A DNA stretch of 64,000 bases from a virus. The notes beneath the pieces are model-generated. The model was not told the origin of the DNA and did no database searches. It saw nothing but the letters and a program-made list of their open reading frames with translations. The stretch lies in IMG/VR virus record IMGVR_UViG_3300020474_000993; one strand, 5' to 3'. Shown one piece after another: positions 7,708-63,088 of the stretch (its first letter is position 1; each line of letters opens with the position of its first letter). A program made the translations under genes and the position numbers.

Positions 7708-9441
7708 ATGTTTGATTACAATCTAATAGATGAATATCAGATTGAGGTTACTACTTACTGTAACGCCGCTTGTCCTCAATGTCCGAGGAATGTAAACGGT
7801 GGTAAGACTAATCCCTATCTACCAGTTTGTCATTTAGATAGAGATGTAATAGATGTTGCATTTCCTAAGTCCCTAGTAAAGAGACTGAGACAGGTTTTCT
7901 TTTGTGGCAGTTATGGTGACCCTATTATGCATCCAGAGTTCTTGGATATACTCAAGGATTTTAGGAGTAAAAACCCAACTCTGCATCTCTACCTTCACAC
8001 TAACGGAGGAGTCCGTGATATTAAATGGTGGGAAGAGATTGCTGAAGTGCTGGGTGACCATGGCAAAATTGATTTTGGTATTGATGGAATATGGGATACC
8101 AATCATCTTTACCGAAGAAATGTAGATTTTTCTCGCGTGATTGAAAACGCGAAAGCATTTATAAATGCTGGTGGAAAAGCACAATGGAACTATCTGGTAT
8201 ACAAACACAATGAACACCAGATATCAGAAGCAAAAAAGATGTCTGAAGAACTGGGGTTTGATGATATACTGTTTAGGTCAACTGGTAGGTTTATGAACCA
8301 CAAAACTCTTACTGAGTTAGAAAAGTGGCCAGTGCAAAACAGAGATGGTGAAATAGAATATTATTTAGAACCACCCACAGACAAACAGTACCACAATAGT
8401 AGTGTTGAGAATCTACCCAGACTACATGAAGAGTATCCAGATATAAAGGATTACTTCAACGAGACCAAAATAAAATGTGACGCTCTCACTGGAAAGAAAG
8501 TGGCAATTACTGCCGAAGGTTTAGTCTTACCATGTAATTTCTTTGAACACAATCTTTACGACATGAGATTTCATAAAAGAGATTCATTTCCTAGTAGTAA
8601 TGATTATCACTTTGATGAAGATGGCAATAACCAAGTTATGTCTCTTATCAATAGACATAATGGTGATGACCAGAATTTAAACATTCACAGTCAACCATTA
8701 GATAAAATTTTTAAAAGTGAGTTTTGGAAAGAGATTGTATGGTCATGGGAACAAGATATAGGGTGTGGCAAAATATTTGAGTGCGCTATGACTTGTGGAC
8801 AGAAGTTAACTAAAGTATGGGATCAAAATAAAAAGATGAAAGAAACTTATCGATATTATATCACAGGTAACAATCGCGGATTGGGACTAGACTTAGCAAA
8901 ACATTTTAATGGTGATGGATGTTCCAGAAGTACTGGCCAGATGCTTACTGATATTACAACTAAGGTTGGTATTCAAAGAATAGTAGAACAAAGTTTACAC
9001 TATGATGTGTTTATCAATAATGCATTTGATGGCCCGCCAGATGAACCTTGGGGTAATTTCGCTCAAGTAAATTTATTGTTAGCGGTATTTAAGGCATGGA
9101 AAGAAGAAAACAAGTCTGGATATATTTTTAATATCGGAAGTACTGGGGCATTAAGTGCCAGAGTTAGTCATGACAGATATGCAATTGCTAAGGACGCCCT
9201 TGCTACCGCGAGTAGACAATGTTCCAAGGCATTTAAAGATGACCTAGTTAAATTTAAAACTACCTTGATTACGCCAGGCAGATTGGACACACCATTGAGT
9301 AGAGGTAGAGAAACATGGACAGGCAACGGTGTGAAAACGCTTGACATTTGCAAGTTTATAGAGTATACTATGGGCATAGAAAATAATAGTATAATTGAAG
9401 ACATCATTATTGATGTTAATTTGGAGTATGGTAATGAGTGA
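7708..9441 (+). CDS. Radical SAM protein with SPASM/twitch-like Cys, fused to a C-terminal short-chain dehydrogenase (SDR)
   Basis: CNAACPQC; GSYGDP; LPC...CAMTCG; then ITGNNRGLG, FINNA, NIGS, YAIAK. Confidence 0.8.
   Translation: MFDYNLIDEYQIEVTTYCNAACPQCPRNVNGGKTNPYLPVCHLDRDVIDVAFPKSLVKRLRQVFFCGSYGDPIMHPEFLDILKDFRSKNPTLHLYLHTNGGVRDIKWWEEIAEVLGDHGKIDFGIDGIWDTNHLYRRNVDFSRVIENAKAFINAGGKAQWNYLVYKHNEHQISEAKKMSEELGFDDILFRSTGRFMNHKTLTELEKWPVQNRDGEIEYYLEPPTDKQYHNSSVENLPRLHEEYPDIKDYFNETKIKCDALTGKKVAITAEGLVLPCNFFEHNLYDMRFHKRDSFPSSNDYHFDEDGNNQVMSLINRHNGDDQNLNIHSQPLDKIFKSEFWKEIVWSWEQDIGCGKIFECAMTCGQKLTKVWDQNKKMKETYRYYITGNNRGLGLDLAKHFNGDGCSRSTGQMLTDITTKVGIQRIVEQSLHYDVFINNAFDGPPDEPWGNFAQVNLLLAVFKAWKEENKSGYIFNIGSTGALSARVSHDRYAIAKDALATASRQCSKAFKDDLVKFKTTLITPGRLDTPLSRGRETWTGNGVKTLDICKFIEYTMGIENNSIIEDIIIDVNLEYGNE
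9341..9369 (+). promoter_or_regulatory. Sigma70-type promoter for gp44, internal to the upstream gene
   Basis: TTGACA, 17 bp, TATACT. Confidence 0.65.
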
Positions 9442-45545: not shown

Positions 45546-46873
45546 TAGGATTATTATTCTCAGCATTAGCAGTATCGGTAGTTGCCGCTTACTTTTCTAT
45601 TGTTGGGTTGATGGCAATTTTTAGTGGACTACCACAGTCTATATTTGCTATGGGTGCGGTGTTAGAAATTGCAAAATTAGTTACAGCGTCATGGGTGTAT
45701 CAGTATTGGAACAAGACACAATTTTTAATGAAGACATACATGGTGGCTGCTGTTGTTATATTATCAATTATTACATCCGTTGGCATTTTTGGATTCCTAT
45801 CTAAAGCACACCTAGACCAATCAGCTTCTACTGGTGACGCAGTGGCACAAGTCGAGAGGATACAAGACCTAGTACAACGAGAACAGGTAAGAATAACCAC
45901 AGCAGAAGAACAAATAGACCGTATCCAGAAAGGTGGTGTTCTGGATGTGTCAGAGAGTATCAAACAACAAGAGGAAATAAGAAACACGGCATGGGACAGA
46001 ATACAGGATGATGTCCAGTACGCAGAAAATCAAATCGCAAAGATACGAGAATCACTGGAGTCTGATTTAAGTAAGAAACAATCAGAGTTAGATGCTCTTG
46101 ATGATATAGTAAAATCATATACAGAACAAGGCACCACTGGTGGCGTATTCACTAGGGAAGATAATGTAGCGAAGGGTATAGAAATTAGAGAGACACAGAA
46201 ACCAGAGAGGGATAGGATTGCCCTTGAAATGGGTGAACTGAGAGGATACGCAGAGACACAGATTGCTGGATATCGTAATAACATAAAAGGATATCGGGAT
46301 TCGGTACAGAGTACTATTGATGGTGCGGATAGAGAAATAAACAGATTAAGAGAACAGGGTGCTGATGACCAAGCATCCAGAGATGAACAAATTGACACTA
46401 TACAAGGCAGAATTGATAGTGCGTATATAAAGATTGATGATTATAACATTGAGTTGTTTGATAAACAATCTATTGTAAGGGACATAGAAAAAGAAGTAGG
46501 CCCAATTAAGTATGTTGCCCAGTTGCTCTATGGTAACAGTGGTGCTGGTGCGGTAGATAATGCCGTTACTATTCTTATTCTATTGCTAGTGTTTGTATTT
46601 GACCCATTGGCGATTATGTTAGTACTTGCAGCCAACCTTAGTTTTAAGGAAAGGCAAGGGGAACTCATAACACCAATGTCAGTTGACGAAACAGTAGTTG
46701 AAGAGCAGATAATACCAGAGGAAGAACCATCGGGTATGCCTAGCGATGATTTACCAGAAATGGCGGATTGGGTCAAGGATAAGTATGGGACTAGCTCTGG
46801 GGTGGACAACCTTCCAGAACACGATAAAAGAAAATTGGAATGGTTGATTGATAAACGAAAAAACATGGAGTAA
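45533..46873 (+). CDS. Multi-TM coiled-coil membrane protein
   Basis: AAYFSIVGL..IF...LE.AKLV; GIFGFLSKAH; EVGPIKY; VFDPLAI. Confidence 0.75.
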   Translation: MGLLIGLLFSALAVSVVAAYFSIVGLMAIFSGLPQSIFAMGAVLEIAKLVTASWVYQYWNKTQFLMKTYMVAAVVILSIITSVGIFGFLSKAHLDQSASTGDAVAQVERIQDLVQREQVRITTAEEQIDRIQKGGVLDVSESIKQQEEIRNTAWDRIQDDVQYAENQIAKIRESLESDLSKKQSELDALDDIVKSYTEQGTTGGVFTREDNVAKGIEIRETQKPERDRIALEMGELRGYAETQIAGYRNNIKGYRDSVQSTIDGADREINRLREQGADDQASRDEQIDTIQGRIDSAYIKIDDYNIELFDKQSIVRDIEKEVGPIKYVAQLLYGNSGAGAVDNAVTILILLLVFVFDPLAIMLVLAANLSFKERQGELITPMSVDETVVEEQIIPEEEPSGMPSDDLPEMADWVKDKYGTSSGVDNLPEHDKRKLEWLIDKRKNME

Positions 46874-46874
46874 A

Positions 46875-48446
46875 GTGAAAAATATAATCATGATTGCATT
46901 GGCGATGCTAAGTTTCGGCGCCTATGCAGAAGAAATAGAAGAAACTATCGTGGTCGGTGCCAAAATATATAATGGATATTCAGACCCAATGTACGACACA
47001 AATCTTTTAGAAGGTATTCTATACACAAAAAGAGATATTGCTGGTGGTTTGGGTGGATTTCATGGTATACAATTAAATGGTACTGATACGAAACATACCG
47101 CAGTATACAAAAACGGCGTGCCTGTCAATGACCCCAGTTCTGGGTGGTACGATTTTGGTAACGATTTACCAGCACATCAAAACATAAGAACTATATCTGG
47201 GCCTAATAGTGCCAAGTATGGTAGTGGTTCTATGGCTGGTGTAGTACTCATAGAGGATAACTTTGAGAGAAATCTTACAGTAGAGGGTGGTGAAGACTTA
47301 TCTAAAATAGTAGCTAGTTATGAATGGTTCAATGAACAACAAGAGGTAGGAGTACAACTTGCTCACTACAATGGTACTACTGGTTCTGCTATGACATATA
47401 ACAATGAGTTGGATTGGTATGAAAACACCACAACAAAGTTTGCCTATGCAAATGCATATGGAAAACTAAATATTGAAAATGTAAATTACAGTTACGATTA
47501 TGACCAGTGTTGGTATATGATGCCACCTAGTGAATGGGAAGATTGGATGTGTAATACTAAGGGTGAGAAGACCACAGTATCATTGAGAAATGAATGGTTC
47601 ACTTTTGGATATACATCTAACGAAGCAGAACACAATACTGGATATGGTATGGAGTCTGAAAGGTTATACGGAAATATTGTTGCCTATAAAGATACACAAC
47701 ATGAACTTGGAGTGACTTTACAAGAGGAAAAATACGACAATAGAGATAGAGACACCCAAGCGATATACTATAACTGGCAAAATGATTTTTTTGGTATTGG
47801 ATACAGATATGAGGAAGGTCAAAATATTGGAAGAATTGGCCTGCAACAGGGAGAATTCAGATTTTCAATTGCAAATAGTTACAGACTGCCCAATTTATAT
47901 GAGCAGTTCGGTGATGCGTGGGTTTCTGATAATCCAGACCTACAACCAGAATCGGGGATAGGAGTGGAATTTGGATACAAGGATGTGTCCATTTACCATT
48001 ATGAATTCGATGAAGGTATTGATTTTGACTACAACAGGTATCAATATGTGAATTCTGGTGAATATTCTACACATGGAATCCGCTATCAAGACCAAATTTT
48101 GCTTGACAATGGGTCTCTTTTCGTGTATACTGAGTACACAGAAACAGATAAAATTAGAGTACCTAGATATAAGACCAAATTAAGTTACTGGACATCTGGG
48201 AATTTTAATGGTATCCAATGGGATACCGCTTTGGAATACATAGGCGAATTTAAAAAGGGAAAAGACTTTGATGCAAGAGCAATTGATGATGTTAATACTA
48301 TTAATTTTAAGTTCGGGGTTTATGCAAACCCTACTGTCTATGTTATGATTTCAGTTGATGATTTAATGAATAACAAATACGAGGTTTTACCAGATTATGC
48401 TTCTGGAGGAAGAACAATACGACTTAGTATCGACAAAGTATTATAA
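46875..48446 (+). CDS. TonB-dependent outer-membrane receptor (compact, BtuB-like)
   Basis: Signal peptide; TonB box EETIVVGA; plug NG...HT.V..NGVP.ND and GP.S..YGSGSMAGVV.I; SYRLPNLYE.FG...NPDLQPE; C-terminal GRTIRLSI. Confidence 0.85.
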   Translation: MKNIIMIALAMLSFGAYAEEIEETIVVGAKIYNGYSDPMYDTNLLEGILYTKRDIAGGLGGFHGIQLNGTDTKHTAVYKNGVPVNDPSSGWYDFGNDLPAHQNIRTISGPNSAKYGSGSMAGVVLIEDNFERNLTVEGGEDLSKIVASYEWFNEQQEVGVQLAHYNGTTGSAMTYNNELDWYENTTTKFAYANAYGKLNIENVNYSYDYDQCWYMMPPSEWEDWMCNTKGEKTTVSLRNEWFTFGYTSNEAEHNTGYGMESERLYGNIVAYKDTQHELGVTLQEEKYDNRDRDTQAIYYNWQNDFFGIGYRYEEGQNIGRIGLQQGEFRFSIANSYRLPNLYEQFGDAWVSDNPDLQPESGIGVEFGYKDVSIYHYEFDEGIDFDYNRYQYVNSGEYSTHGIRYQDQILLDNGSLFVYTEYTETDKIRVPRYKTKLSYWTSGNFNGIQWDTALEYIGEFKKGKDFDARAIDDVNTINFKFGVYANPTVYVMISVDDLMNNKYEVLPDYASGGRTIRLSIDKVL

Positions 48447-51723: not shown

Positions 51724-51980
51724 TGCCAGATTTCACACCGCAATTAACACTATCTCTGAAACACTATTTCGAGAGCAATATAGAACGACATAAAATAAAT
51801 GTACAAGTTCTAATGCAGAATGGCGTGGGAGTTGCTGAACACCCAGATATAATGAAAACCATTGAGGACGAACTTGGCAAGATTGCTGAATACAAGGATA
51901 AACTAGAAGCACTAGATACACTTGAACCACATCCGCAATCGACACTGAGTTTTTTAAAGGAAGATGGAACGAGCGACTAG
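51723..51980 (+). CDS. Conserved hypothetical protein
   Basis: HKINV.V...N.VGVAEHPDI..TIE.EL. Confidence 0.65.
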   Translation: MPDFTPQLTLSLKHYFESNIERHKINVQVLMQNGVGVAEHPDIMKTIEDELGKIAEYKDKLEALDTLEPHPQSTLSFLKEDGTSD

Positions 51981-52497
51981 ATTCTTTTTATTTAAATGTG
52001 GCGGATGGAAGAATGAGTTTTGGATAGTAGATGAAAAGAGTCTACAGGAAGTACCAAAACCACGCGAGATGATAATTAAGTTCTCTAATATAGAACAGAT
52101 TAGAGAATACGCAATCACCCAAAACCCACAAGACTTACCAATAGTCGATAGGTGCAGAGACCGTACCGCTTGGCACACGCCAGAGGGTCGAGAACGCATA
52201 AAACAGGCTAAACTGGGTCAAAGTAACCCCAATTCTAGGGGACTGTCAGAAGCGCATAGGGCGAAGATATCACAAACGATGACAGGTACGCGGAGGGGTG
52301 AATTCAATCCCATGTATGGGAGACAACACAAAGCACATACCATAGAACTAATACGACAGAAGGCATATGCTCGCCCCAAGATGAGATGGGCAGTAGAACC
52401 TACTGGAAAATCCCATTTGATACGCGCTGACGGTGAAATACCCCAAGAATGGCAATGGGGACGATATTACGACAAATACAGACCAAATGAGGAGTAA
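51964..52497 (+). CDS. NUMOD3 DNA-binding-motif protein without a recognisable nuclease domain
   Basis: HTPEGRERIKQA, LSEAHRAKISQ, GEFNPMYGRQHKAHT, W.WGR. Confidence 0.7.
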   Translation: MERATRFFLFKCGGWKNEFWIVDEKSLQEVPKPREMIIKFSNIEQIREYAITQNPQDLPIVDRCRDRTAWHTPEGRERIKQAKLGQSNPNSRGLSEAHRAKISQTMTGTRRGEFNPMYGRQHKAHTIELIRQKAYARPKMRWAVEPTGKSHLIRADGEIPQEWQWGRYYDKYRPNEE

Positions 52498-56057: not shown

Positions 56058-56150
56058 ATGGTGTTTGAGTGCTTCATACAGATAGCATTAGCATTTATTA
56101 TTGGATATCTTATAGGAAAGTACAGGGGAGATGGTGACCATTATGCCTAA
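56058..56150 (+). CDS. 30-aa hydrophobic peptide (translated by hand)
   Basis: AAGGAG RBS; MVFECFIQIALAFIIGYLIGKYRG. Confidence 0.45.
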   Translation: MVFECFIQIALAFIIGYLIGKYRGDGDHYA

Positions 56151-56295
56151 AAAACATGGTGTAAAGGTAAACATCGTAAACAGTCTGAGTCGCTCTGAGA
56201 CAAAAAGGAATAAACGACATAGTAATAAGACAATCAGACAGGCAGGGAGAAGAAGTTCTGTGCTTGAACTGAGAGGGGGGAAAAGTGGGAAATAG
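56143..56295 (+). CDS. 50-aa basic peptide (translated by hand)
   Basis: MPKKHGVKVNIVNSLSRSETKRNKRHSNKTIRQAGRR...; overlaps the upstream stop. Confidence 0.4.
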   Translation: MPKKHGVKVNIVNSLSRSETKRNKRHSNKTIRQAGRRSSVLELRGGKSGK

Positions 56296-56299
56296 TGGT

Positions 56300-56384
56300 G
56301 ATGTAAATCCGCGTGAGGGCAGGAGTGAGCGCCGCTGCCCGACTAAAAAATCAGACACCGCTGCCGCTCCCAGACGCGATTTAA
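56300..56384 (-). ncRNA. Candidate GC-rich small RNA transcribed leftward
   Basis: Starts just after a minus-strand promoter; closing stem TAAATCGCGT/ACGCGGATTTA and internal GGGCAG/CTGCCC hairpin. Confidence 0.4.
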
Positions 56385-56387
56385 AGA

Positions 56388-56417
56388 GATCATACCATAG
56401 GCAGTGGCAATTGTCAA
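56388..56417 (-). promoter_or_regulatory. Minus-strand sigma70 promoter with GATC overlapping the -10 box
   Basis: On - strand: TTGACA (56417-56412), 17 bp, TG-g-TATGAT-C. Confidence 0.7.
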
Positions 56418-56490
56418 GCGAAAGGCGCCCTCTATGGACACAGTGGCAGGAGTGGCTCTGATCTTTTTTCACATAAAACGAAAATAATGC

Positions 56491-56519
56491 TTGACAAGTG
56501 CTTATCTAATGTGTATAAT
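56491..56519 (+). promoter_or_regulatory. Perfect sigma70 consensus promoter
   Basis: TTGACA, 17 bp, TATAAT. Confidence 0.8.
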
Positions 56520-56554
56520 AGGGTGTTCCCTTTAAGAAGAGTAATGGCTGCTGC

Positions 56555-56626
56555 TAAGTCATTGATATATAAGGGAATAATAAAGTAAAATAATCCTTGA
56601 CATCTGGTTCGTACTGTGTCATGATC
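56555..56626 (+). promoter_or_regulatory. Early promoter with IHF site and GATC overlapping the -10 box, driving the large ncRNA
   Basis: TAAGTCATTGATA 56555-56567; TTGACA 56597-56602; 17 bp; TG-t-CATGAT-C. Confidence 0.8.
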
Positions 56627-56631
56627 ACTAA

Positions 56632-57030
56632 GTAATTGAGATGAGGAGAGACCATTGAGTTGACAATAGATTAAACCCCAGTTAAACCGCACCATCTCAC
56701 CGTGATTGAGGTTCAGAAAGAGTGCTATCGGGGTCGGATATGAATCACGGGGCCAATGTGAAAGGTGGCATGACCACGCTCCGCATTGACCAAGGCAGGG
56801 GGGACGCAGCCCCATCAAAAGGCGGAGAGACAACTAAAAGGAGAGTCCAGTAGCGAAATTGCAAGCCGGCAAAGATGCGTGAATGGACAGGGCAGTTCGC
56901 TGCTAACGGTGTGGTGACCTAATACACCCGCCGCTCCCCCACGGTTAGGGGAGCACCACCCAGCTCGAAGCGGCCTATGCTTTGGGATCGAGGTGGTCGC
57001 CCTTACAAGGGCATCTGGCATCCCCCCTAG
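56632..57030 (+). ncRNA. Large (~400 nt) highly structured non-coding RNA of unrecognised class
   Basis: GC-rich island without a credible ORF; at least 10 helices incl. CCGTGATT/AATCACGG, CAATGTG/CGCATTG, AGTAGCGAA/TTCGCTGCT, GCTCCCC/GGGGAGC, ACCACC/GGTGGT, GCCCTT/AAGGGC and long-range AGGGGGGA/TCCCCCCT. Confidence 0.7.
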
Positions 57031-57097
57031 TACATTGCTAAAAAAAGATTTTGCCCAGTACAGGATTGCCACACAGAATTTTTTTCGGGATATAATT

Positions 57098-57535
57098 ATG
57101 GCAGATATAATTTTTGATGTAGACGGCACTCTTATGGATATAGAACATAGGAGACAATTCGTCACACAGCGTCCCAAGGACTTTAAATCGTTTCGTGAAC
57201 ATACCCAATTCGATACAAGGAAAGAGGACATCTTTGCCATTGCGGATGCGTTACAGGCACAGGGTCATCGTATTCTTATATCTACTGGTCGTATTAAATC
57301 AGAACATGATATCACCGTTAAACAGATACGAGATGGCGGTATAGACTTTGAAGCAATATACATGCGTTCTGATACAGACTACCGTCCCGATGATGAATTA
57401 AAAGAAGGATACCTAGAGAAGATGCGTAGAGATGGTTACAATCCTACTATGGCATTTGATGACCGTCAGCGTGTTGTAGATATGTTTCGTTCTAAGGGAT
57501 TAACAGTATTTCAAGTGGCAGAAGGAGATTTTTAA
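57098..57535 (+). CDS. HAD phosphatase resembling the 3'-phosphatase domain of polynucleotide kinase (PseT-C)
   Basis: IFDVDGTL, STGR, MR...DYRPDDELK, FDDRQRVVDMFR.KGL.VFQVA.GDF. Confidence 0.85.
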   Translation: MADIIFDVDGTLMDIEHRRQFVTQRPKDFKSFREHTQFDTRKEDIFAIADALQAQGHRILISTGRIKSEHDITVKQIRDGGIDFEAIYMRSDTDYRPDDELKEGYLEKMRRDGYNPTMAFDDRQRVVDMFRSKGLTVFQVAEGDF

Positions 57536-57720
57536 TGTATACATACTTAAAAGAAATCACAGAGTGGGATGAACCTATACCCAATCACACATATATATTT
57601 AATGAAAAGAATCAGAATGTCGGTTATATAAAGACTGGCACTACTGAGTCTATATTCTATGCGAAACCTTCTACATTGTTTAGTAAGTCGCGTAGGAAGT
57701 TTATTACTCTTAAACGGTGA
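57535..57720 (+). CDS. Hypothetical protein
   Basis: LKEITEW...PNHTY...GYIK...FSKSRRKF. Confidence 0.6.
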   Translation: MYTYLKEITEWDEPIPNHTYIFNEKNQNVGYIKTGTTESIFYAKPSTLFSKSRRKFITLKR

Positions 57721-57872
57721 AATATGAATGAAACAAAAAACAGTAAATATCCTAGTACAAACAATCTTTTGGGGTTGCGTAATATTGGGAGCAATTTTTA
57801 TTACAGTGCCAGTGCATTAGCATTCCTTACTTGGGCATTATATGATAGTCTTTATATGATGGTACTAGAGGT

Positions 57873-58658
57873 TTGGTGTGTAGCATATGGAATTCTTATG
57901 TAATGGGAGTTTATGGTGGGCATCAACCGAAAGAGATATCTTTTGAACTGACAAAGAATCAGCGGAAAGGTCAACTTTGGGTATATGGAGATTCATTCGC
58001 AGCTCAACCAGCACCTTGGTTGGATATCGTTGCAAAAGATTTAAATCTAACTCAAGCAAATCATGCGTGGCCTGGTTCTTCACTGGAATACACCAGCGTA
58101 CAAATCAACAAAACAATGGATTTGTGGGAAAAACAGGATGTCGTTATTGTTTGTCTTACTGAGGTATTGCGTATATGGGAAAGATGGGAACATAAAGACC
58201 ACGGTACTAAACATTTCAGAGGACAACATGTACCCGAATCTGCAATTCTTGATATGAAAGACAGCAAGGGTTCCAAGGGTCTTGAGAATCTACCTCTTCA
58301 ACCTACCATACAGATTAACACTGCACTACGCAATCATCTCATAAGAGTTTTATCCTATGCGAATGTGCGTGCCGTGGTGGTGCTTGATGGGTTTAAGAAC
58401 AAGGCAAACAGTTCCATGACTATTCCGAGCAATCTAATCTATAGTGAAGAGGGATATCTCATGGAGGTTAGTATCAAGGAACCAGAGGGTTGGTACAATT
58501 TCAGCACATTCGGGCCAGACTGGCGTAAGAATCACCTATCGGAAGTTAACCACCCTATCCTAGCGGAAAAGGTAGTAACAGGAGTACTGGAAAAATCGTC
58601 CGTAAACCTTACCTTCGGTTTTGAAAAAGATATATTTAGGGTCGGTGAGGAAAAATAG
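57873..58658 (+). CDS. SGNH/GDSL-like hypothetical protein (start uncertain)
   Basis: WVYGDSFA; NHA.PGSS; C-terminal NHLSEVNH. Confidence 0.6.
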   Translation: MVCSIWNSYVMGVYGGHQPKEISFELTKNQRKGQLWVYGDSFAAQPAPWLDIVAKDLNLTQANHAWPGSSLEYTSVQINKTMDLWEKQDVVIVCLTEVLRIWERWEHKDHGTKHFRGQHVPESAILDMKDSKGSKGLENLPLQPTIQINTALRNHLIRVLSYANVRAVVVLDGFKNKANSSMTIPSNLIYSEEGYLMEVSIKEPEGWYNFSTFGPDWRKNHLSEVNHPILAEKVVTGVLEKSSVNLTFGFEKDIFRVGEEK

Positions 58659-59684
58659 GTGGATTATCAGATTGATGGTATAGACGGGCTTGGCGTTAAG
58701 GGGGAACTATGGGGTATAATTGTTTCGGGGAAGTTTAAAGAACATGATTTATTAGTCTATAACGCATACGAAGCAGAACTGGGCCCAGAAACCGATTACT
58801 ATGAGATGGGTAAGTATGTCAAAAGTTATACAGAGATTACTGGCGCATCCAATCTAAATCGTTTCATACCTAGACTAGATAATGTACATATAATTTCATG
58901 GCCATATCACTGGTTAAATGATACAATATGTCGATACGGTTCAAAGGGTGACCAGATTGACCTTAATTATTTCAAAGAGATTAACGCATATCCACCACCA
59001 AAACATCTATTTACCAGTATGATACGACAACCAAAACCCCATCGTGAAATGCTTTGGGATTTATTAAAGAGTCGGGACATGGTAAACGAGTTTTGTAGTT
59101 ACGCACCAGAGGGTGTACACATTGATTTGAAAGAACAAAAATCTGAGGGTCAGATTTTCTTTCACAATGATGACGAGGATATACAGGCAAGAACGCATAT
59201 GCCTCCGACTTGGTATAAAGATGTATTATTCGATGTTATCTGTGAAACACATCATGAAGATAATATGATGTTCTTCACCGAAAAGACTTGGAAGGCATTT
59301 CTTGGTATGAAGTATCCGCTTATTCTAGGTGCGAAAGGTATACATGCACATTTGGAAAAGTTGGGATTTAGATTTCCGTGGAATCTACCATATCGATTCG
59401 ATGGAGAACCTCACATATACAATAGGGCAAAACAACTAGTGCTTACTCTGGAGTATGTACAGGAGGCAACGGTGAAAAGGGTATCGCAATTTGGAAAAGA
59501 GGCCACCGTTGGGGATTTATATAAGGAATGGTATAATGACTTACTATGGAATCAGCGATTAGCACTCAATTTATGTGCTGAGAACCCCCCAGATTGCTTC
59601 GGATCAGTCCCATGTCCGCCAGAATGGTATCGACATTGGTTATTTTCGAGTTCAATAGCGACAAATACAACAGCAAATTTATAA
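58659..59684 (+). CDS. Hypothetical glycosyltransferase-like protein
   Basis: R.PKPHR; FDVICET...FFTEKTWK...P.ILG...LEKLGF pattern. Confidence 0.45.
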   Translation: MDYQIDGIDGLGVKGELWGIIVSGKFKEHDLLVYNAYEAELGPETDYYEMGKYVKSYTEITGASNLNRFIPRLDNVHIISWPYHWLNDTICRYGSKGDQIDLNYFKEINAYPPPKHLFTSMIRQPKPHREMLWDLLKSRDMVNEFCSYAPEGVHIDLKEQKSEGQIFFHNDDEDIQARTHMPPTWYKDVLFDVICETHHEDNMMFFTEKTWKAFLGMKYPLILGAKGIHAHLEKLGFRFPWNLPYRFDGEPHIYNRAKQLVLTLEYVQEATVKRVSQFGKEATVGDLYKEWYNDLLWNQRLALNLCAENPPDCFGSVPCPPEWYRHWLFSSSIATNTTANL

Positions 59685-59715
59685 AAAAATTCAATTATTT
59701 TGCTTTATCTAGGAA

Positions 59716-59777
59716 TATCAATGGCTTACAGAGGCAGCTTTTTCTTGACATTTGCTTCAAATTATGGGATCATGATC
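59716..59777 (+). promoter_or_regulatory. Early promoter with IHF site and GATC in the -10 box
   Basis: TATCAATGGCTTA 59716-59728; TTGACA 59745-59750; 17 bp; TG-g-GATCAT-GATC. Confidence 0.85.
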
Positions 59778-59806
59778 CTGTAATCAATTGAGAGAGGTCT
59801 AAAACC

Positions 59807-60169
59807 ATGGCGTATGTATCCCAAGAAAAGAAAAAAGAACTTGCGGTTGGAATCAAATCGGTACTGAAAAAGTACGGTATGAAAGGTTCTATCGCGGTTA
59901 ACAATCATTCCACATTAGTGGTCAATCTGAAGTCTGGCCCCATCAACTTCAAGGCGCAAAACGAACATTATCAAGTTAATCCTTACCATGTCGAGTCACA
60001 ATGGACTGGCGTTGCTAAGGAGTTTCTGCTTGAGTTGTTGGAAGCGATGAAGGGTGAAGGTACTGGATGGTTCGATAAGTCGGACATCATGACTGACTAC
60101 TTCCACACTGCTTGGTACAATGATATCAACATTGGAAAGTGGAACAAAACCTACGAACTAACTGTTTAA
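59807..60169 (+). CDS. Conserved early phage protein
   Basis: MAYVSQEKKKEL...KYGMKGSI...WFDKSDIMTDYFHTAWY.DINIGKW. Confidence 0.75.
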   Translation: MAYVSQEKKKELAVGIKSVLKKYGMKGSIAVNNHSTLVVNLKSGPINFKAQNEHYQVNPYHVESQWTGVAKEFLLELLEAMKGEGTGWFDKSDIMTDYFHTAWYNDINIGKWNKTYELTV

Positions 60170-60187
60170 CTTTGAGAGAGTAATATT

Positions 60188-60451
60188 ATGAGTGTAGAAA
60201 CTATCAAGAAAGAAATGCTGACCATGAGTCAAGAAGAGTTGAGTATGATTATTCATTATGCCCAACGCATCAAAACGGTATCCGCGACTGCCACCTTTTC
60301 GGTGGGTCAAAAGGTTACCGTCATTCAGAAAACCAAACGCCGTGAGGGTGTCATTCTCAAGATGAACACCAAGAAGGCTCTTGTCGAGATGCCTTGGCAA
60401 GGTCGAATCGCTTCGGTTTCTGTTCCCTATTCTATGTTGGAGGCTGCGTAA
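60188..60451 (+). CDS. Early hypothetical protein (SH3-like C-terminus)
   Basis: FSVGQKV...GVILKMNTKKALV...VPYSMLE. Confidence 0.7.
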   Translation: MSVETIKKEMLTMSQEELSMIIHYAQRIKTVSATATFSVGQKVTVIQKTKRREGVILKMNTKKALVEMPWQGRIASVSVPYSMLEAA

Positions 60452-60702
60452 TGATACGAGTGAAAAATCAAAATCGTAAACAGGTCATTGACCTTGATGG
60501 GTCTGACGGCAATGCTTTCGTTTTAATGGGCATTGCCCGTAGCGTATTGCGAAAAGGTGGTTCCAATGAATATTGTGAATTGGTTCTTAAAGAGATGCAA
60601 TCAAGTGACTACAATAACCTAGTCAAAACTTTTGACAAGTATCTTGGTGAGTACTTCACCCTCGAAACCTCAAATGAGGAACTACTAGAGGCGATTGCTT
60701 AA
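60451..60702 (+). CDS. Conserved hypothetical protein
   Basis: IDLDGSDGNAFVLMG...EMQSSDYNNLV.TFD. Confidence 0.7.
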   Translation: MIRVKNQNRKQVIDLDGSDGNAFVLMGIARSVLRKGGSNEYCELVLKEMQSSDYNNLVKTFDKYLGEYFTLETSNEELLEAIA

Positions 60703-60823
60703 TGAGTTGTCATTTTACTGAAGCATTTCTGGAACGGTACTATGAGGAAGGCCTTGAAATGGGCATGACCGATGAACAGGCCTCCGAGTATGCAAACAAA
60801 ATGCTAGAGGAGGCGCCTCAACC

Positions 60824-61315
60824 TTGAGTCTGGTTCTTCGCGTGACAGGTGGAAACAAATTCCAAAAACAACTAGTGTTTGGTACGGTGCAATTTTGTAT
60901 GCACCGTCTTCTACCTAATGTGCGTAAACTAGATATTAATGTACATATCCGAAACTTCAAAGAAGATTCAAACATTGGATACTGTACCGATGATTCATCT
61001 GATGCCACTGACTTTGTTGGCAAATCACCTAGACGATTTCAGATTGAAATATCAAAAGACTTGAACTTGACAGATTTTATTAAGTGTGTCTTACATGAGT
61101 TTGTCCATCTCAAGCAGTTTGTACTTAGAGAGATGGTCGAATTAGATAGACAACGAACACGATGGAAAAGTAAGGTCATACCAGATACTACAAAATACTA
61201 TGACCAGCCTTGGGAGAAAGAGGCGTATCGACTTGAATCACAATTACTCTGGGAGTGCCTAGAGAATCAAGAATTTTTAACGAATAATATTAATGTAAAT
61301 GGAGTGAGAATATGA
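60824..61315 (+). CDS. HExxH metallopeptidase-like protein
   Basis: VLHEFVHLKQ...YYDQPWEKEAY. Confidence 0.75.
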   Translation: MSLVLRVTGGNKFQKQLVFGTVQFCMHRLLPNVRKLDINVHIRNFKEDSNIGYCTDDSSDATDFVGKSPRRFQIEISKDLNLTDFIKCVLHEFVHLKQFVLREMVELDRQRTRWKSKVIPDTTKYYDQPWEKEAYRLESQLLWECLENQEFLTNNINVNGVRI

Positions 61316-61470
61316 TTAGATGGTGTGTAGGATTCTTTTTAGTACTTGGTAGTGTTGGTGGTTTGGAAAATATGACCATGACTGTTACTGAGACTTTGGC
61401 GTTTGCCTTTATGGGGCTTGCGTTGATGGGTTGGGCGACTGCCGATTTCAATAAGCAATATGGCGAGTAA
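61312..61470 (+). CDS. 52-aa two-TM protein (translated by hand)
   Basis: MIRWCVGFFLVLGSVGGLE...LAFAFMGLALMGWA; ATGA overlap. Confidence 0.55.
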   Translation: MIRWCVGFFLVLGSVGGLENMTMTVTETLAFAFMGLALMGWATADFNKQYGE

Positions 61471-61473
61471 TTA

Positions 61474-61806
61474 ATGGGTATGATGCACATGGGTGGCAGT
61501 CTTCGATATGATATGTCTGGTCGTAAACGCAAGGCGTACAAGAAGAACAACCCAAAATCGAAAAACACTTTCGTGACAAAGACTATGCAACCCCTAAAGA
61601 TTGACCGTAGTCGCATTGAGGCAATGGAGGCGCATCGTAAGAAGTATCCTTCATTAGATACCTTGGGTGGTGGCAGTGGCACTAAGAATGACAAGTGGAT
61701 ACGAGAGAAACAAGAAATCTCATCTGGTTACACGGTTGCACCAGCATACAATAAAGGTGCCTACCAAGTAATCGGCAAATCCAATATAAAAGACATTGGA
61801 AAATAA
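61474..61806 (+). CDS. Conserved basic phage protein
   Basis: YPSL...YTVAPAYNKGAYQVI...IKDIGK. Confidence 0.7.
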   Translation: MGMMHMGGSLRYDMSGRKRKAYKKNNPKSKNTFVTKTMQPLKIDRSRIEAMEAHRKKYPSLDTLGGGSGTKNDKWIREKQEISSGYTVAPAYNKGAYQVIGKSNIKDIGK

Positions 61807-61819
61807 TTGAAAAAAACAC

Positions 61820-61869
61820 TTGACATTTGCAAAAAAGATCAGTATAATAGTTGTTAATGGTTATAAATA
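61820..61869 (+). promoter_or_regulatory. Tandem sigma70 and late promoters upstream of the tRNA
   Basis: TTGACA 61820-61825, 17 bp (GATC at 61837-61840), TATAAT 61843-61848; TATAAATA 61862-61869. Confidence 0.8.
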
Positions 61870-61874
61870 AGCAT

Positions 61875-61944
61875 GCGGTGGACGGTATTCGTACAATCCG
61901 TTTCCAACGGACAAGGTTAGGTGAGACTCCTAGACGCCGCTCCA
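61875..61944 (+). tRNA. Non-canonical tRNA-Gly(UCC), 70 nt, encoded CCA
   Basis: GCGGTG/CGCCGC acceptor with U73-CCA; anticodon arm TCCG-TTTCCAA-CGGA; mini D-arm GTA-TTCG-TAC; T-arm TTAGG-TGAGACT-CCTAG. Confidence 0.8.
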
Positions 61945-61949
61945 ATTAT

Positions 61950-62205
61950 ACAGTTGTAGTCCTAGGCAAAGACTCCATCCTGTCACAAGTTAAACTGCCT
62001 CGACTGAATGACGGTACTATAAGTACAATGCAGAGTAGGTCGTTAAACCATAAGGAGCCCTGAGCAGTGGCGCTAGGTAACACACAGACCGAAAAAGGCT
62101 CAGTCCATCGACTACAGAGGTCAGTGATGCCCTCGCATACAAAGATGGACGCAAGGGAGCTGGGCACCTCTCTGTATTTAAACTGCCCACTATTAATGGA
62201 GTTGT
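61950..62205 (+). ncRNA. Candidate ~250-nt structured RNA or riboswitch-like leader
   Basis: CTGAGC/GCTCAG, GTCCATC/GATGGAC and TGGGCA/TGCCCA hairpins; loop-loop TACAGAG/CTCTGTA; ACTCCAT/ATGGAGT covers the RBS of the next gene. Confidence 0.55.
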
Positions 62206-62208
62206 ACA

Positions 62209-62352
62209 ATGAAATACATTAGTATTTTTATCGTGTGTTTAATGATTTCGGCATGTTCTAGTAGGATAACACTTACCGCTGACACTGCCAAAGGTCAAGA
62301 TTTGGATGTCACAATCAGAACATCTCAATCAGGCACACCGACAGTAGATTGA
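62209..62352 (+). CDS. 47-aa lipoprotein (translated by hand)
   Basis: GGAG RBS; MKYISIFIVCLMISAC-SS lipobox. Confidence 0.65.
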   Translation: MKYISIFIVCLMISACSSRITLTADTAKGQDLDVTIRTSQSGTPTVD

Positions 62353-62425
62353 AAAGTTATAGAGAAAGATAATAAAGTCTGTCTGTCATATGCACCGAAC
62401 TTTTGTTACGATGCATCGAAATAGA

Positions 62426-62789
62426 ATTTGTGGGTGGTTAACATTTGTTAACTTTTATTTGAAAGAAAACGGAGTATAGTATGAAAAAAACTTCACAAGC
62501 AACAAAGGTAATTTCTGCCTTAGAGTCTACAGACAATGGTCTTACGGCTAATGAAATGAAAAATAGGTTTGGCGTAGTTAATGCGAGAGCATTAGTGACA
62601 CACCTTCGACAGAACGGTTTCGCCATTTATTTAAACAAAACCCCAAAGTACACTGACCGTAATGGTAATGTACGCAAAGGTGTCTCACGATATCGTTTGG
62701 GCACACCGTCTAGGGCAATTATTGCTGCTGGATACAAAGCTCTGGCTGCATCTAGCTAGAGTTAATTGAACCGTTAACTACCCACAAAT
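62426..62789. repeat. 17-bp inverted repeat pair flanking the 62481 gene
   Basis: ATTTGTGGGTGGTTAAC (62426-62442) and GTTAACTACCCACAAAT (62773-62789); 1 mismatch that is G-U in + strand RNA. Confidence 0.75.
62481..62759 (+). CDS. Winged-HTH DNA-binding protein
   Basis: LTANEMKNRFGV.NARALVTHLRQNGFAIYLN...YRLGTPSR. Confidence 0.75.
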   Translation: MKKTSQATKVISALESTDNGLTANEMKNRFGVVNARALVTHLRQNGFAIYLNKTPKYTDRNGNVRKGVSRYRLGTPSRAIIAAGYKALAASS

Positions 62790-63002: not shown

Positions 63003-63024
63003 TTAACACCTCCTGTATTAAGAG

Positions 63025-63088
63025 ATGCGTTCCTTCGGCGGAATTGCCTACTTCCGTCCACCGCTACATTTAGGGTGGATGAACGAAT
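63025..63088 (-). ncRNA. Glutamine riboswitch (glnA motif)
   Basis: - strand ATTCGTTCATCCACC...GGTGGACGGAAGTAGGC...GCCGAAGGAACGCAT matches the CGUUCA..GACGGAAGUAGG..CCGAAGGAACG core. Confidence 0.85.

Follow-up and report, generated by a model that had tools for sequence, protein, structure and literature searches.

A structured non-coding RNA gene at an early-promoter locus of an uncultured marine T4-like myovirus

The locus and its source phage

Here we describe a locus on the + strand of the 64,000-nt viral DNA IMGVR_UViG_3300020474_000993 (the window, by which we mean the whole stretch analysed), where two early promoters are followed by a GC-rich region and a phosphatase gene. All long open reading frames (ORFs) of the window lie on the + strand, and among the proteins it encodes are a NUMOD3 protein, a DnaB-type helicase and a family-B DNA polymerase whose identity to the gp43 of cyanomyoviruses is only 47%. 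The window gave no nucleotide match to cultured phages among 50,697 deposited phage records. The source phage is an uncultured marine T4-like myovirus. Other features of the window are a 532-aa protein with a TonB-dependent-receptor plug domain (46848-48446, +), a 177-aa protein with a NUMOD3 motif of the homing-endonuclease type (51964-52497, +) and a glutamine riboswitch aptamer (63024-63087, -; RF01739, 60 bits, E 1e-10).

The upstream early promoter, P1 (56491-56519, +; TTGACA-17-TATAAT, 12/12), reads into the RNA described below and heads a near-empty cassette (56544-56588, +), which consists of a Shine-Dalgarno sequence (SD) and a 14-codon ORF that stops just 5' of the -35 box of the second promoter and has shrunk to 5 codons in the related contigs L003/L004. 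One contig from an RNA library begins at 56525, near P1, a contig end that cannot prove a transcript start. The second early promoter, P2, which the initial annotation had placed at 56597, is present there as TTGACA-17-(TG)CATGAT (56597-56625, +) with an extended -10 TG and a predicted start at about 56632, and is conserved across all full-length relatives of the RNA. The downstream gene (57098-57535, +) encodes a PNKP-type HAD phosphatase of 145 aa that lacks a kinase domain (PF25109, E 1.3e-27). The next promoter of the sigma70 type, of the same kind as that of the RNA, lies at 59745. Between 56625 and 59745, sigma70-type promoter matches occurred at chance level only and no canonical terminator was found, so that the phosphatase and four further genes are probably transcribed from the promoters of the RNA. 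From 57000 to 62500, canonical intrinsic terminators on either strand numbered 0, as against 3.1 expected from shuffled sequences, and the phage seems to end its transcription units without them.

Just upstream of P1 lies a second GC-rich (about 0.5), ORF-poor stretch (56296-56480) that is 75-77% conserved in relatives and is closed by a U-run at about 56461-66; its fold has a z-score of only -1.44. It contains a strong leftward promoter-like site (56417-56389, -; TTGACA-17-TATGAT with TG). It is preceded by a very basic 54-aa ORF (56131-56295, +; MPKKHGVKVN...RQAGRRSS...), the product of which may be a small nucleic-acid-binding protein encoded near the RNA. A counterpart of this ORF forms the C-terminal part of an ORF at 8337-8693 of a class-E contig (L095; classes are defined below), and none was seen beside class D or the minimal class.

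Relatives and non-coding character of the RNA

Relatives were first searched by comparing the downstream phosphatase with viral contigs, which yielded five contigs with phosphatases 83-95% identical to it and with upstream DNA that matched the RNA region at 75-81%. Further relatives were collected from viral contigs and marine metagenomes with short invariant motifs and were sorted with nhmmer and by eye. The full-length relatives comprise 15 distinct sequences from marine viromes and metagenomes, which fall into three classes: class W (the window, L065, L076, L001-L004 and L050/L055/L062), the divergent class D (L052/L053/L061, equal to L028) and class E (L093 and L095). At roughly 60% identity, the three classes share one architecture, and invariant blocks persist in otherwise diverged sequence. 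Class E was retrieved by a pattern from the 5' domain alone, yet it has GGCCUAUGC and AUCUGGUAUC, so the 3' motifs are truly conserved and not an artefact of the search. The additional matches of the pattern GGCCTATGC...ATCTGGYATC in viral contigs were false positives in coding sequence, and the sole match in the genome collection (L082) was a chance match within GC-rich sequence; both were discarded. The family is small and narrow, with all members so far in one clade of uncultured marine T4-like myoviruses.

Classes D and E occupy the same syntenic region with other genes directly downstream, and the downstream neighbour is, depending on the class, the phosphatase, a 65-aa ORF, a 356-aa protein or tRNAs. 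The position just upstream of a Pnk-type phosphatase, to which the initial annotation had drawn attention, therefore characterizes one class (PNKP-type phosphatase at 57098) and is not a general tie. Across the classes, the RNA has no constant companion among protein genes that would indicate a partner, and a search for trans targets in the rest of the 64-kb window found no complementarity of at least 12 nt to the RNA.

Part of the stretch was present in sequencing runs of several marine studies, and 19 of the 24 runs listed were RNA libraries. Within 56493-57127, two studies contributed contigs at 95-100% identity, assembled from four marine metatranscriptome runs. Such contigs place the stretch in RNA libraries and no more, with strand, ends and level invisible and DNA carry-over possible. 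Parts of the stretch were uncovered, and in run X1 contig depth was about 50 for the RNA contig and about 3 for the phosphatase-gene contig, values that cannot rank expression.

The G + C content is 0.55-0.59 across 56700-56999 and about 0.33-0.45 in the surroundings, which agrees with the GC-rich island noticed originally. The absence of a credible ORF across 56626-57033 (+) was likewise confirmed: the longest + strand ORF inside the region has 43 aa, and the minus-strand frames are longer, yet neither conserved nor matched by Pfam, which gave no match in the RNA region. Substitutions among relatives have no 3-base periodicity and leave no frame conserved, and only 4 of the 48 indels listed have lengths divisible by three. 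Conserved protein coding was thus looked for on either strand and found on neither.

A comparison with Rfam 15 (cmscan), as the initial annotation had proposed, matched the RNA to no family of any class at gathering thresholds (window and 15 related loci), nor, for the window region together with five related loci, at the permissive cut-offs E<=10 and E<=5; the output otherwise consisted of noise, tRNAs elsewhere and the glutamine riboswitch elsewhere. The families covered included GOLLD, ROOL, HEARO, IMES-1 to 4, raiA, OLE, RNase P, tmRNA, group I/II introns, 6S and self-cleaving ribozymes, in agreement with the by-eye judgement that signatures of RNase P, tmRNA and group I/II introns are missing. 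The folding energy of the single sequence is unremarkable and alike on both strands (z -2.18 and -2.10); these z-scores neither stand out nor separate the strands, so the evidence for structure is comparative and not thermodynamic. An enrichment of CsrA-type GGA motifs, judged by eye, was rejected.

The RNA combines the generic properties of structured non-coding RNAs, with base pairs kept by compensatory changes beyond controls and no coding signal. Judged from this comparative evidence, about 56632-57028 (+) is the gene of a structured non-coding RNA whose family is uncatalogued, and the gene possibly extends from about 56526 and as far as the U-run at 57085.

Modules and covariation

On the same grounds, the RNA is modular, consisting of a promoter with an SD/minigene leader, a body of about 270 nt, and the 3' modules M1 and M2. 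The leader contains an SD (GAGGAG, 56643-48) and a two-codon minigene (UUG AGU UGA, 56655-63), which together span 56643-56663 (+). The succession of SD, 6-10 nt, ATG/GTG/TTG, one or two sense codons and TGA is kept in all eight leader types (11 distinct leader sequences), each of which thus has every sequence element expected of such a minigene. Most leaders have one sense codon and L093 has two; the sense codon and the bases between these elements differ from leader to leader, and the UGA lies 10-11 nt 5' of the ACCCC of the first helix in every class. Because the sense codon differs by lineage (Ser, Leu, Ala, Asn, Asp), the sequestering of one tRNA is unlikely. The same promoter and SD leader serve gene-bearing cassettes at this locus and at others, so the minigene could be no more than a shortened ORF start, a relic of an ORF-type cassette without a function of its own. 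That three classes have retained it, at a fixed distance from the fold, suggests a use. Two-codon minigenes are translated and matter in lambda bar, according to PMC2490762 (ref. 20), and that of the EHEC LEE1 leader is translated and affects downstream expression (PMC3262186). The element described here resembles both in that a strong SD, a start, one sense codon and a stop head a long structured leader; it differs in being known from sequence alone and in being followed by a non-coding fold.

The 5' domain was tested on an alignment of 11 sequences (56675-56813) with a structure of 38 pairs obtained from a column-pair scan, RNAalifold and inspection. The proportion of paired cells was 95.2% (84.7% in shuffles), the number of pairs altered on both sides was 16 (7.5 in shuffles) and the covariation score was 0.311 (0.116 in shuffles), and none of these values was reached in any of 500 shuffles (0/500). 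In slid controls, in which the partners were moved by 1-3 columns, merely 35-48% of the cells were paired. The collection of homologues and test of covariation that the initial annotation had called for thus spoke for the RNA, with 15 relatives gathered and a 5' domain that surpasses both kinds of control. Its argument that G-U-compatible positions favour a + strand RNA also proved sound, since many G-U pairs, among them an invariant U-G, are compatible with the + strand only. Indels concentrate in hairpin tips.

The pseudoknotted part of the 5' domain (56675-56750, +) comprises the invariant helix S1 (56675-79/56730-34, ACCCC/GGGGU), which could stack below hairpin Y (56694-98/56708-12; two pairs altered on both sides, in class D); a possible 4-bp helix Z (56689-92/56722-25), which is rated weak because in class D it can form only with a register shift of 2 nt; and helix X (56700-06(07)/56744(43)-50), formed by the loop of Y and downstream sequence. 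Helix X, already drawn at 56700-07/56743-50 in the initial annotation, is the best supported of all: five of the seven counted pairs are altered on both sides, and its variants CCGUGAU, CCUGUGU and CCUGUAA are matched by their partner strands. Because the loop of Y supplies the 5' strand of X, the two helices either combine in an H-type pseudoknot, with A56699 and U56707 as linkers, or represent alternative folds. The domain continues with a three-tier hairpin (56751-56791, +; d 56751-54/56788-91, e 56757-60/56782-85, f 56765-68/56774-77) and with hairpin g (56798-56813, +; GGGG/CCCC here, GCAG/CUGC and GAGG/CCUC in relatives), both of which have compensatory changes. An independent minimum-energy fold of class D alone reproduced the three tiers, in which tier f and the tip are much longer, and the previously proposed helix 56754-60/56782-88 equals helices d and e. 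Another proposed helix, 56638-43/56693-98, is possible in two classes and absent from the divergent class.

The central region begins with a conserved purine-rich linker with invariant columns (56814-56844, +; AAAAGGYGGRGAGA ... AAAGGAGA). It is followed by the variable hairpin h2 (56845-56888, +), in which the closing pairs GUCC/GGAC, GCCC/GGGC and GACC/GGUC replace one another; by this comparison h2 is clearly real. In L003 it is reduced to a tetraloop hairpin, and in L050/L055/L062 it holds an insertion of about 200 nt (L050:231-818(-), L055:1163-1748(+), L062:1-533(+)). This insertion has a GGTTCGAT motif, yet gave no tRNA call (ARAGORN) and no Rfam match. Hairpin i (56891-56904, +; GGCAG-UUCG-CUGCU) has GGCGG/CCGCC around a longer insert in relatives. 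For the central and 3' helices together (h2, i, M1a, M1b, k, Hc) support was modest, with 82.3% of the cells paired and 78.7% in shuffles.

Module M1 (56913-56954, +) consists of two hairpins, 56913-16/56925-28 with the loop ACCUAAUA and 56933-39/56948-54 with the loop CACGGUUA; the second is supported by comparison as originally drawn, and the first had been placed off register at 56908-12/56924-28. M1 with a U-run also occurs after an ORF stop in unrelated phage contigs (L032:3608-4414, also L035, L040, L041, L045 and L046), which carry several tRNAs and a permuted tmRNA of the alpha-proteobacterial type, with a near-identical M1 one ORF further. These near-identical copies suggest, from their sequence, that small RNA modules are exchanged between co-occurring marine phages.

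Module M2 (56955-57027, +) is a helix, 56955-60/56992-97, around the invariant GGCCUAUGC (56972-80), followed by a small hairpin (56999-57003/57008-12) and the invariant GCAUCUGGCAUCCCCCC (57011-27). Comparison supports the larger helix, as initially proposed, by changes that are one-sided and wobble only. The small hairpin had been drawn as 56999-57004/57007-12, which leaves a 2-nt loop, and its feasible form has uncompensated changes. M2 is nearly invariant and was partly required by the search patterns, so its pairings are beyond a covariation test. The pairing of the invariant AUCUGGCAUC with GGCCUAUGC had 100% of the cells paired and no covariation, both changes in class E being from G-C to G-U, and an alternative partner of AUCUGGCAUC is GCC(C)CAGA just 5' of the U-run. 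The 3' 60-150 nt of the RNA are modules common to early mRNAs. No further copy of M1 or M2 was found in the 64-kb window, and M2, single in the window, was absent from the other early cassettes examined and is specific to the RNA locus. The A/U-rich spacer that ends at the next start codon (57028-57097, +) contains UUGCCCAG (57051-58) and UUGCCACACAGAA with U7 (57066-85), and GCC(C/A)CAGAR with a U-run occurs in every class. An intrinsic terminator in the sense of a G+C-rich hairpin with a 3-8 nt loop and a U-run was not found at the 3' end of the RNA; the only hairpin that can be drawn there, UCUGGCA with UGCC(C)CAGA and U7, is non-canonical and has a loop of 35-60 nt. It is possible that UUGCCACACAGAA and U7 are the 3' strand of a non-canonical terminator.

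About half of the helices of the initial annotation are conserved. Its long-range pairings did not withstand the comparison: 56849-57/56896-904, AGGGGGGA/TCCCCCCT and GGCGG/CCGCC together had 69.3% of the cells paired and 68.6% in shuffles, and both segments of the presumed GTCCA/TGGAC pseudoknot instead form an ordinary variable hairpin (56845-48/56885-88). A whole-length RNAalifold consensus gave unstable long-range pairs, and a closure of the 3' end (GGGG-UC-GGA/UCC-CCCC) that can be drawn in classes W and D is not claimed, as class E is without the C-run. Of the original picture of a new, large, multi-helix phage RNA from an early promoter, the core thus stands (non-coding, covarying, in no Rfam family and present in RNA-library contigs), whereas the long-range pairings, the pseudoknot as drawn and the tie to Pnk fall away, and the modular build and the accessory status described below had been missed. 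The functions suggested there (ribozyme, protein sponge, decoy or primer) are guesses.

Exchangeable cargo and possible function

Three contigs (L005, L054, L080) are syntenic with the window, sharing its upstream genes (a 334/339-aa gene and small membrane ORFs) and, on the downstream side, the phosphatase. L005 and similar contigs have a Cys-rich 147-aa ORF in place of the first 270 nt of the RNA and keep M1 and M2. In a minimal class (L049/L083, L058, L067, L070/L077/L084/L086, L074, L075/L085, L087, L072), a perfect sigma70 promoter at the same locus drives an 80-aa winged-helix gene. Downstream of this gene come a hairpin of 16-20 bp, covarying among lineages and topped by the invariant cap CCUA-UGCUU-UGGG, then CCCUUACAAGGGCAUCUGGCAUCCCC, an A/U-rich spacer with GCCCAGAA and a U-run, and often tRNA genes. 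The body of the RNA had no match in relatives that are 91% (161 kb) and 100% (165 kb) complete, so that the body counts as accessory cargo within an early region that is hyperplastic.

T4-type phages have hyperplastic regions where small early genes are shuffled by promoter/terminator cassettes (PeSL, promoter-early stem-loop; PMC2839356; PMC4122927). The locus shares with these cassettes a near-consensus sigma70 early promoter, of the type that recurs at 59745, and a small, exchangeable cargo that differs among close relatives. It departs from them in that the cargo is an RNA and not an ORF, and in that no stem-loop terminator was found just 5' of the promoter on the + strand around 56491, around 56597 or after the RNA. 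Instead of a G/C stem-loop terminator, the 3' element is a conserved, locus-specific module of 60-150 nt that is not repeated at other cassettes.

The reading we prefer, with a probability of about 50%, combines a trans-acting early RNA body with a minigene whose ribosome shields the 5' end and a 3' part (M2 and spacer) that shapes the 3' end and meters read-through. The body would be the product of the cassette, a stable and abundant early RNA that acts in trans by binding or decoying a host or phage factor, as the small early proteins of T4-type phages do. The 5' end would be shielded by a ribosome that loads onto the minigene and halts at its weak UGA, just ahead of the fold, and M2 with the U-rich spacer would shape and protect the 3' end. 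M2 may also let part of the transcription continue into the phosphatase and the four genes that lack a sigma70-type promoter of their own, in which case it would mark the boundary between immediate-early and delayed-early transcription.

The same position directly upstream of read-through genes, with neither an above-chance sigma70 promoter nor a canonical terminator between 56625 and 59745, fits equally well a cis-acting leader, where the whole RNA, or mainly M2, would be an attenuator, a riboswitch-like switch or a processive antiterminator for the phosphatase and the four following genes; we regard this as the main alternative, a possible but doubtful explanation. In its favour, M2 always lies between the early unit and the downstream genes or tRNAs, AUCUGGCAUC can pair with GGCCUAUGC or with GCCCAGA before the U-run in the manner of a classical choice between anti-terminator and terminator, and helices X and Y either exclude one another or form a pseudoknot. 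The order of promoter, winged-helix gene and M2 in the minimal class recalls the layout PR-cro-nutR-tR1 of lambda, where nut, like put of HK022, is an antitermination RNA. Like these elements, the RNA follows an early promoter or a first small regulator gene and precedes read-through genes, and a hairpin GCCC-UUACAA-GGGC resembles lambda boxB in form only; unlike nut and put, it has no match in sequence or model and no N-like protein was identified, so that the resemblance is positional only. A gene-specific sensor is hard to reconcile with downstream genes that differ by class, and the replacement of the 270-nt body by protein genes while M2 stays marks the body as cargo and not as a control element. 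The terminator proposed for such a switch, moreover, has a 'loop' of 35-60 nt, was missed by the terminator scan and has no covariation.

The remaining explanations fare worse. Transcripts prime replication at T4 origins and, as RNA II, in ColE1, and a GC-rich early transcript that forms a persistent RNA-DNA hybrid near the A/T-rich spacer could likewise prime the leading strand here. Like ColE1 RNA II, the transcript is long, structured and early and lies beside an A/T-rich tract (57028-57090), a likeness of layout only, and its strong early promoter and an M2 that is locus-specific and single in the 64-kb window would suit an origin. We nevertheless consider an origin primer improbable, as an R-loop has no need of conserved G-U helices with compensatory changes, iterons and a change of skew are absent at the locus, and a body missing from near-complete relatives is a poor fit to an origin. 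Those same relatives, which manage without the body, would be expected if the region were a functionless remnant, a decayed gene or a recombination scar between cassettes, kept by the close kinship of the phages; the repeated promoter cassettes of hyperplastic early regions (PMC2839356, PMC4122927) and the likeness of the minigene to a truncated ORF start point the same way. Against this stand compensatory changes in many helices, far above shuffled and slid controls, and three classes at about 60% identity that keep the architecture and the invariant blocks in diverged sequence, which make a remnant very improbable. Least credible is a highly diverged representative of some known class (RNase P, tmRNA, group I/II intron, 6S, GOLLD/ROOL/HEARO) or a hidden small protein gene. 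By eye, GGAGAGUCC...GGGCAGGGC bears a faint likeness to the CR-I region of RNase P, but the P4-like pairing is lost in the divergent class D and was rejected; cmscan was negative for all classes at gathering thresholds and, for the window and five loci, at permissive cut-offs; and a protein gene is opposed by the lack of a conserved ORF, of periodicity and of a Pfam match.

A large orphan structured RNA in a phage is a known kind of object. Like GOLLD, ROOL, HEARO, IMES, raiA and OLE, the RNA spans several hundred nucleotides with multiple helices supported by covariation, and it shares with such large orphan RNAs its phage-borne, marine occurrence and its presence in RNA libraries. It differs in that it matches none of their models, is smaller than GOLLD and ROOL, begins with a translated-looking minigene, ends with 3' modules common to mRNAs and has so far been found in one T4-like clade. 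Fremin et al. 2023 predicted about 10,000 viral structured RNAs (PMC10690425). The unnamed predictions of that study lie outside our comparison; in the searchable literature, the combination of a minigene, a pseudoknotted body exchangeable for proteins and a locus-specific 3' module is undescribed.

Large structured RNAs of obscure function are rare and have repeatedly been a source of new biochemistry. The RNA described here is well defined by its promoter, boundaries, three classes and covariation, is short enough for structure probing and cryo-EM, and has natural controls in close relatives with a protein gene or nothing in its place. It raises the questions of whether a ribosome parked on a minigene 10-11 nt before a pseudoknot can stabilize or fold a non-coding RNA, of how T4-like marine phages end or pass early units without canonical terminators, given the invariant 3' module, and of how RNA and protein cargo are exchanged at one locus. 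More tentatively, and rather unlikely on present evidence, the RNA may represent a new class of phage effector, pseudoknotted, made at the earliest stage of infection and stabilized by a ribosome, that catalyses a reaction or mimics a host RNA against host defence or machinery, with the 3' module as a boundary signal. Such an effector would play, as an RNA, the part that small early proteins play in T4-type phages and would be interchangeable with protein genes at the locus, and its 3' module would represent a novel kind of RNA signal for the boundary between immediate-early and delayed-early transcription in the absence of canonical terminators.
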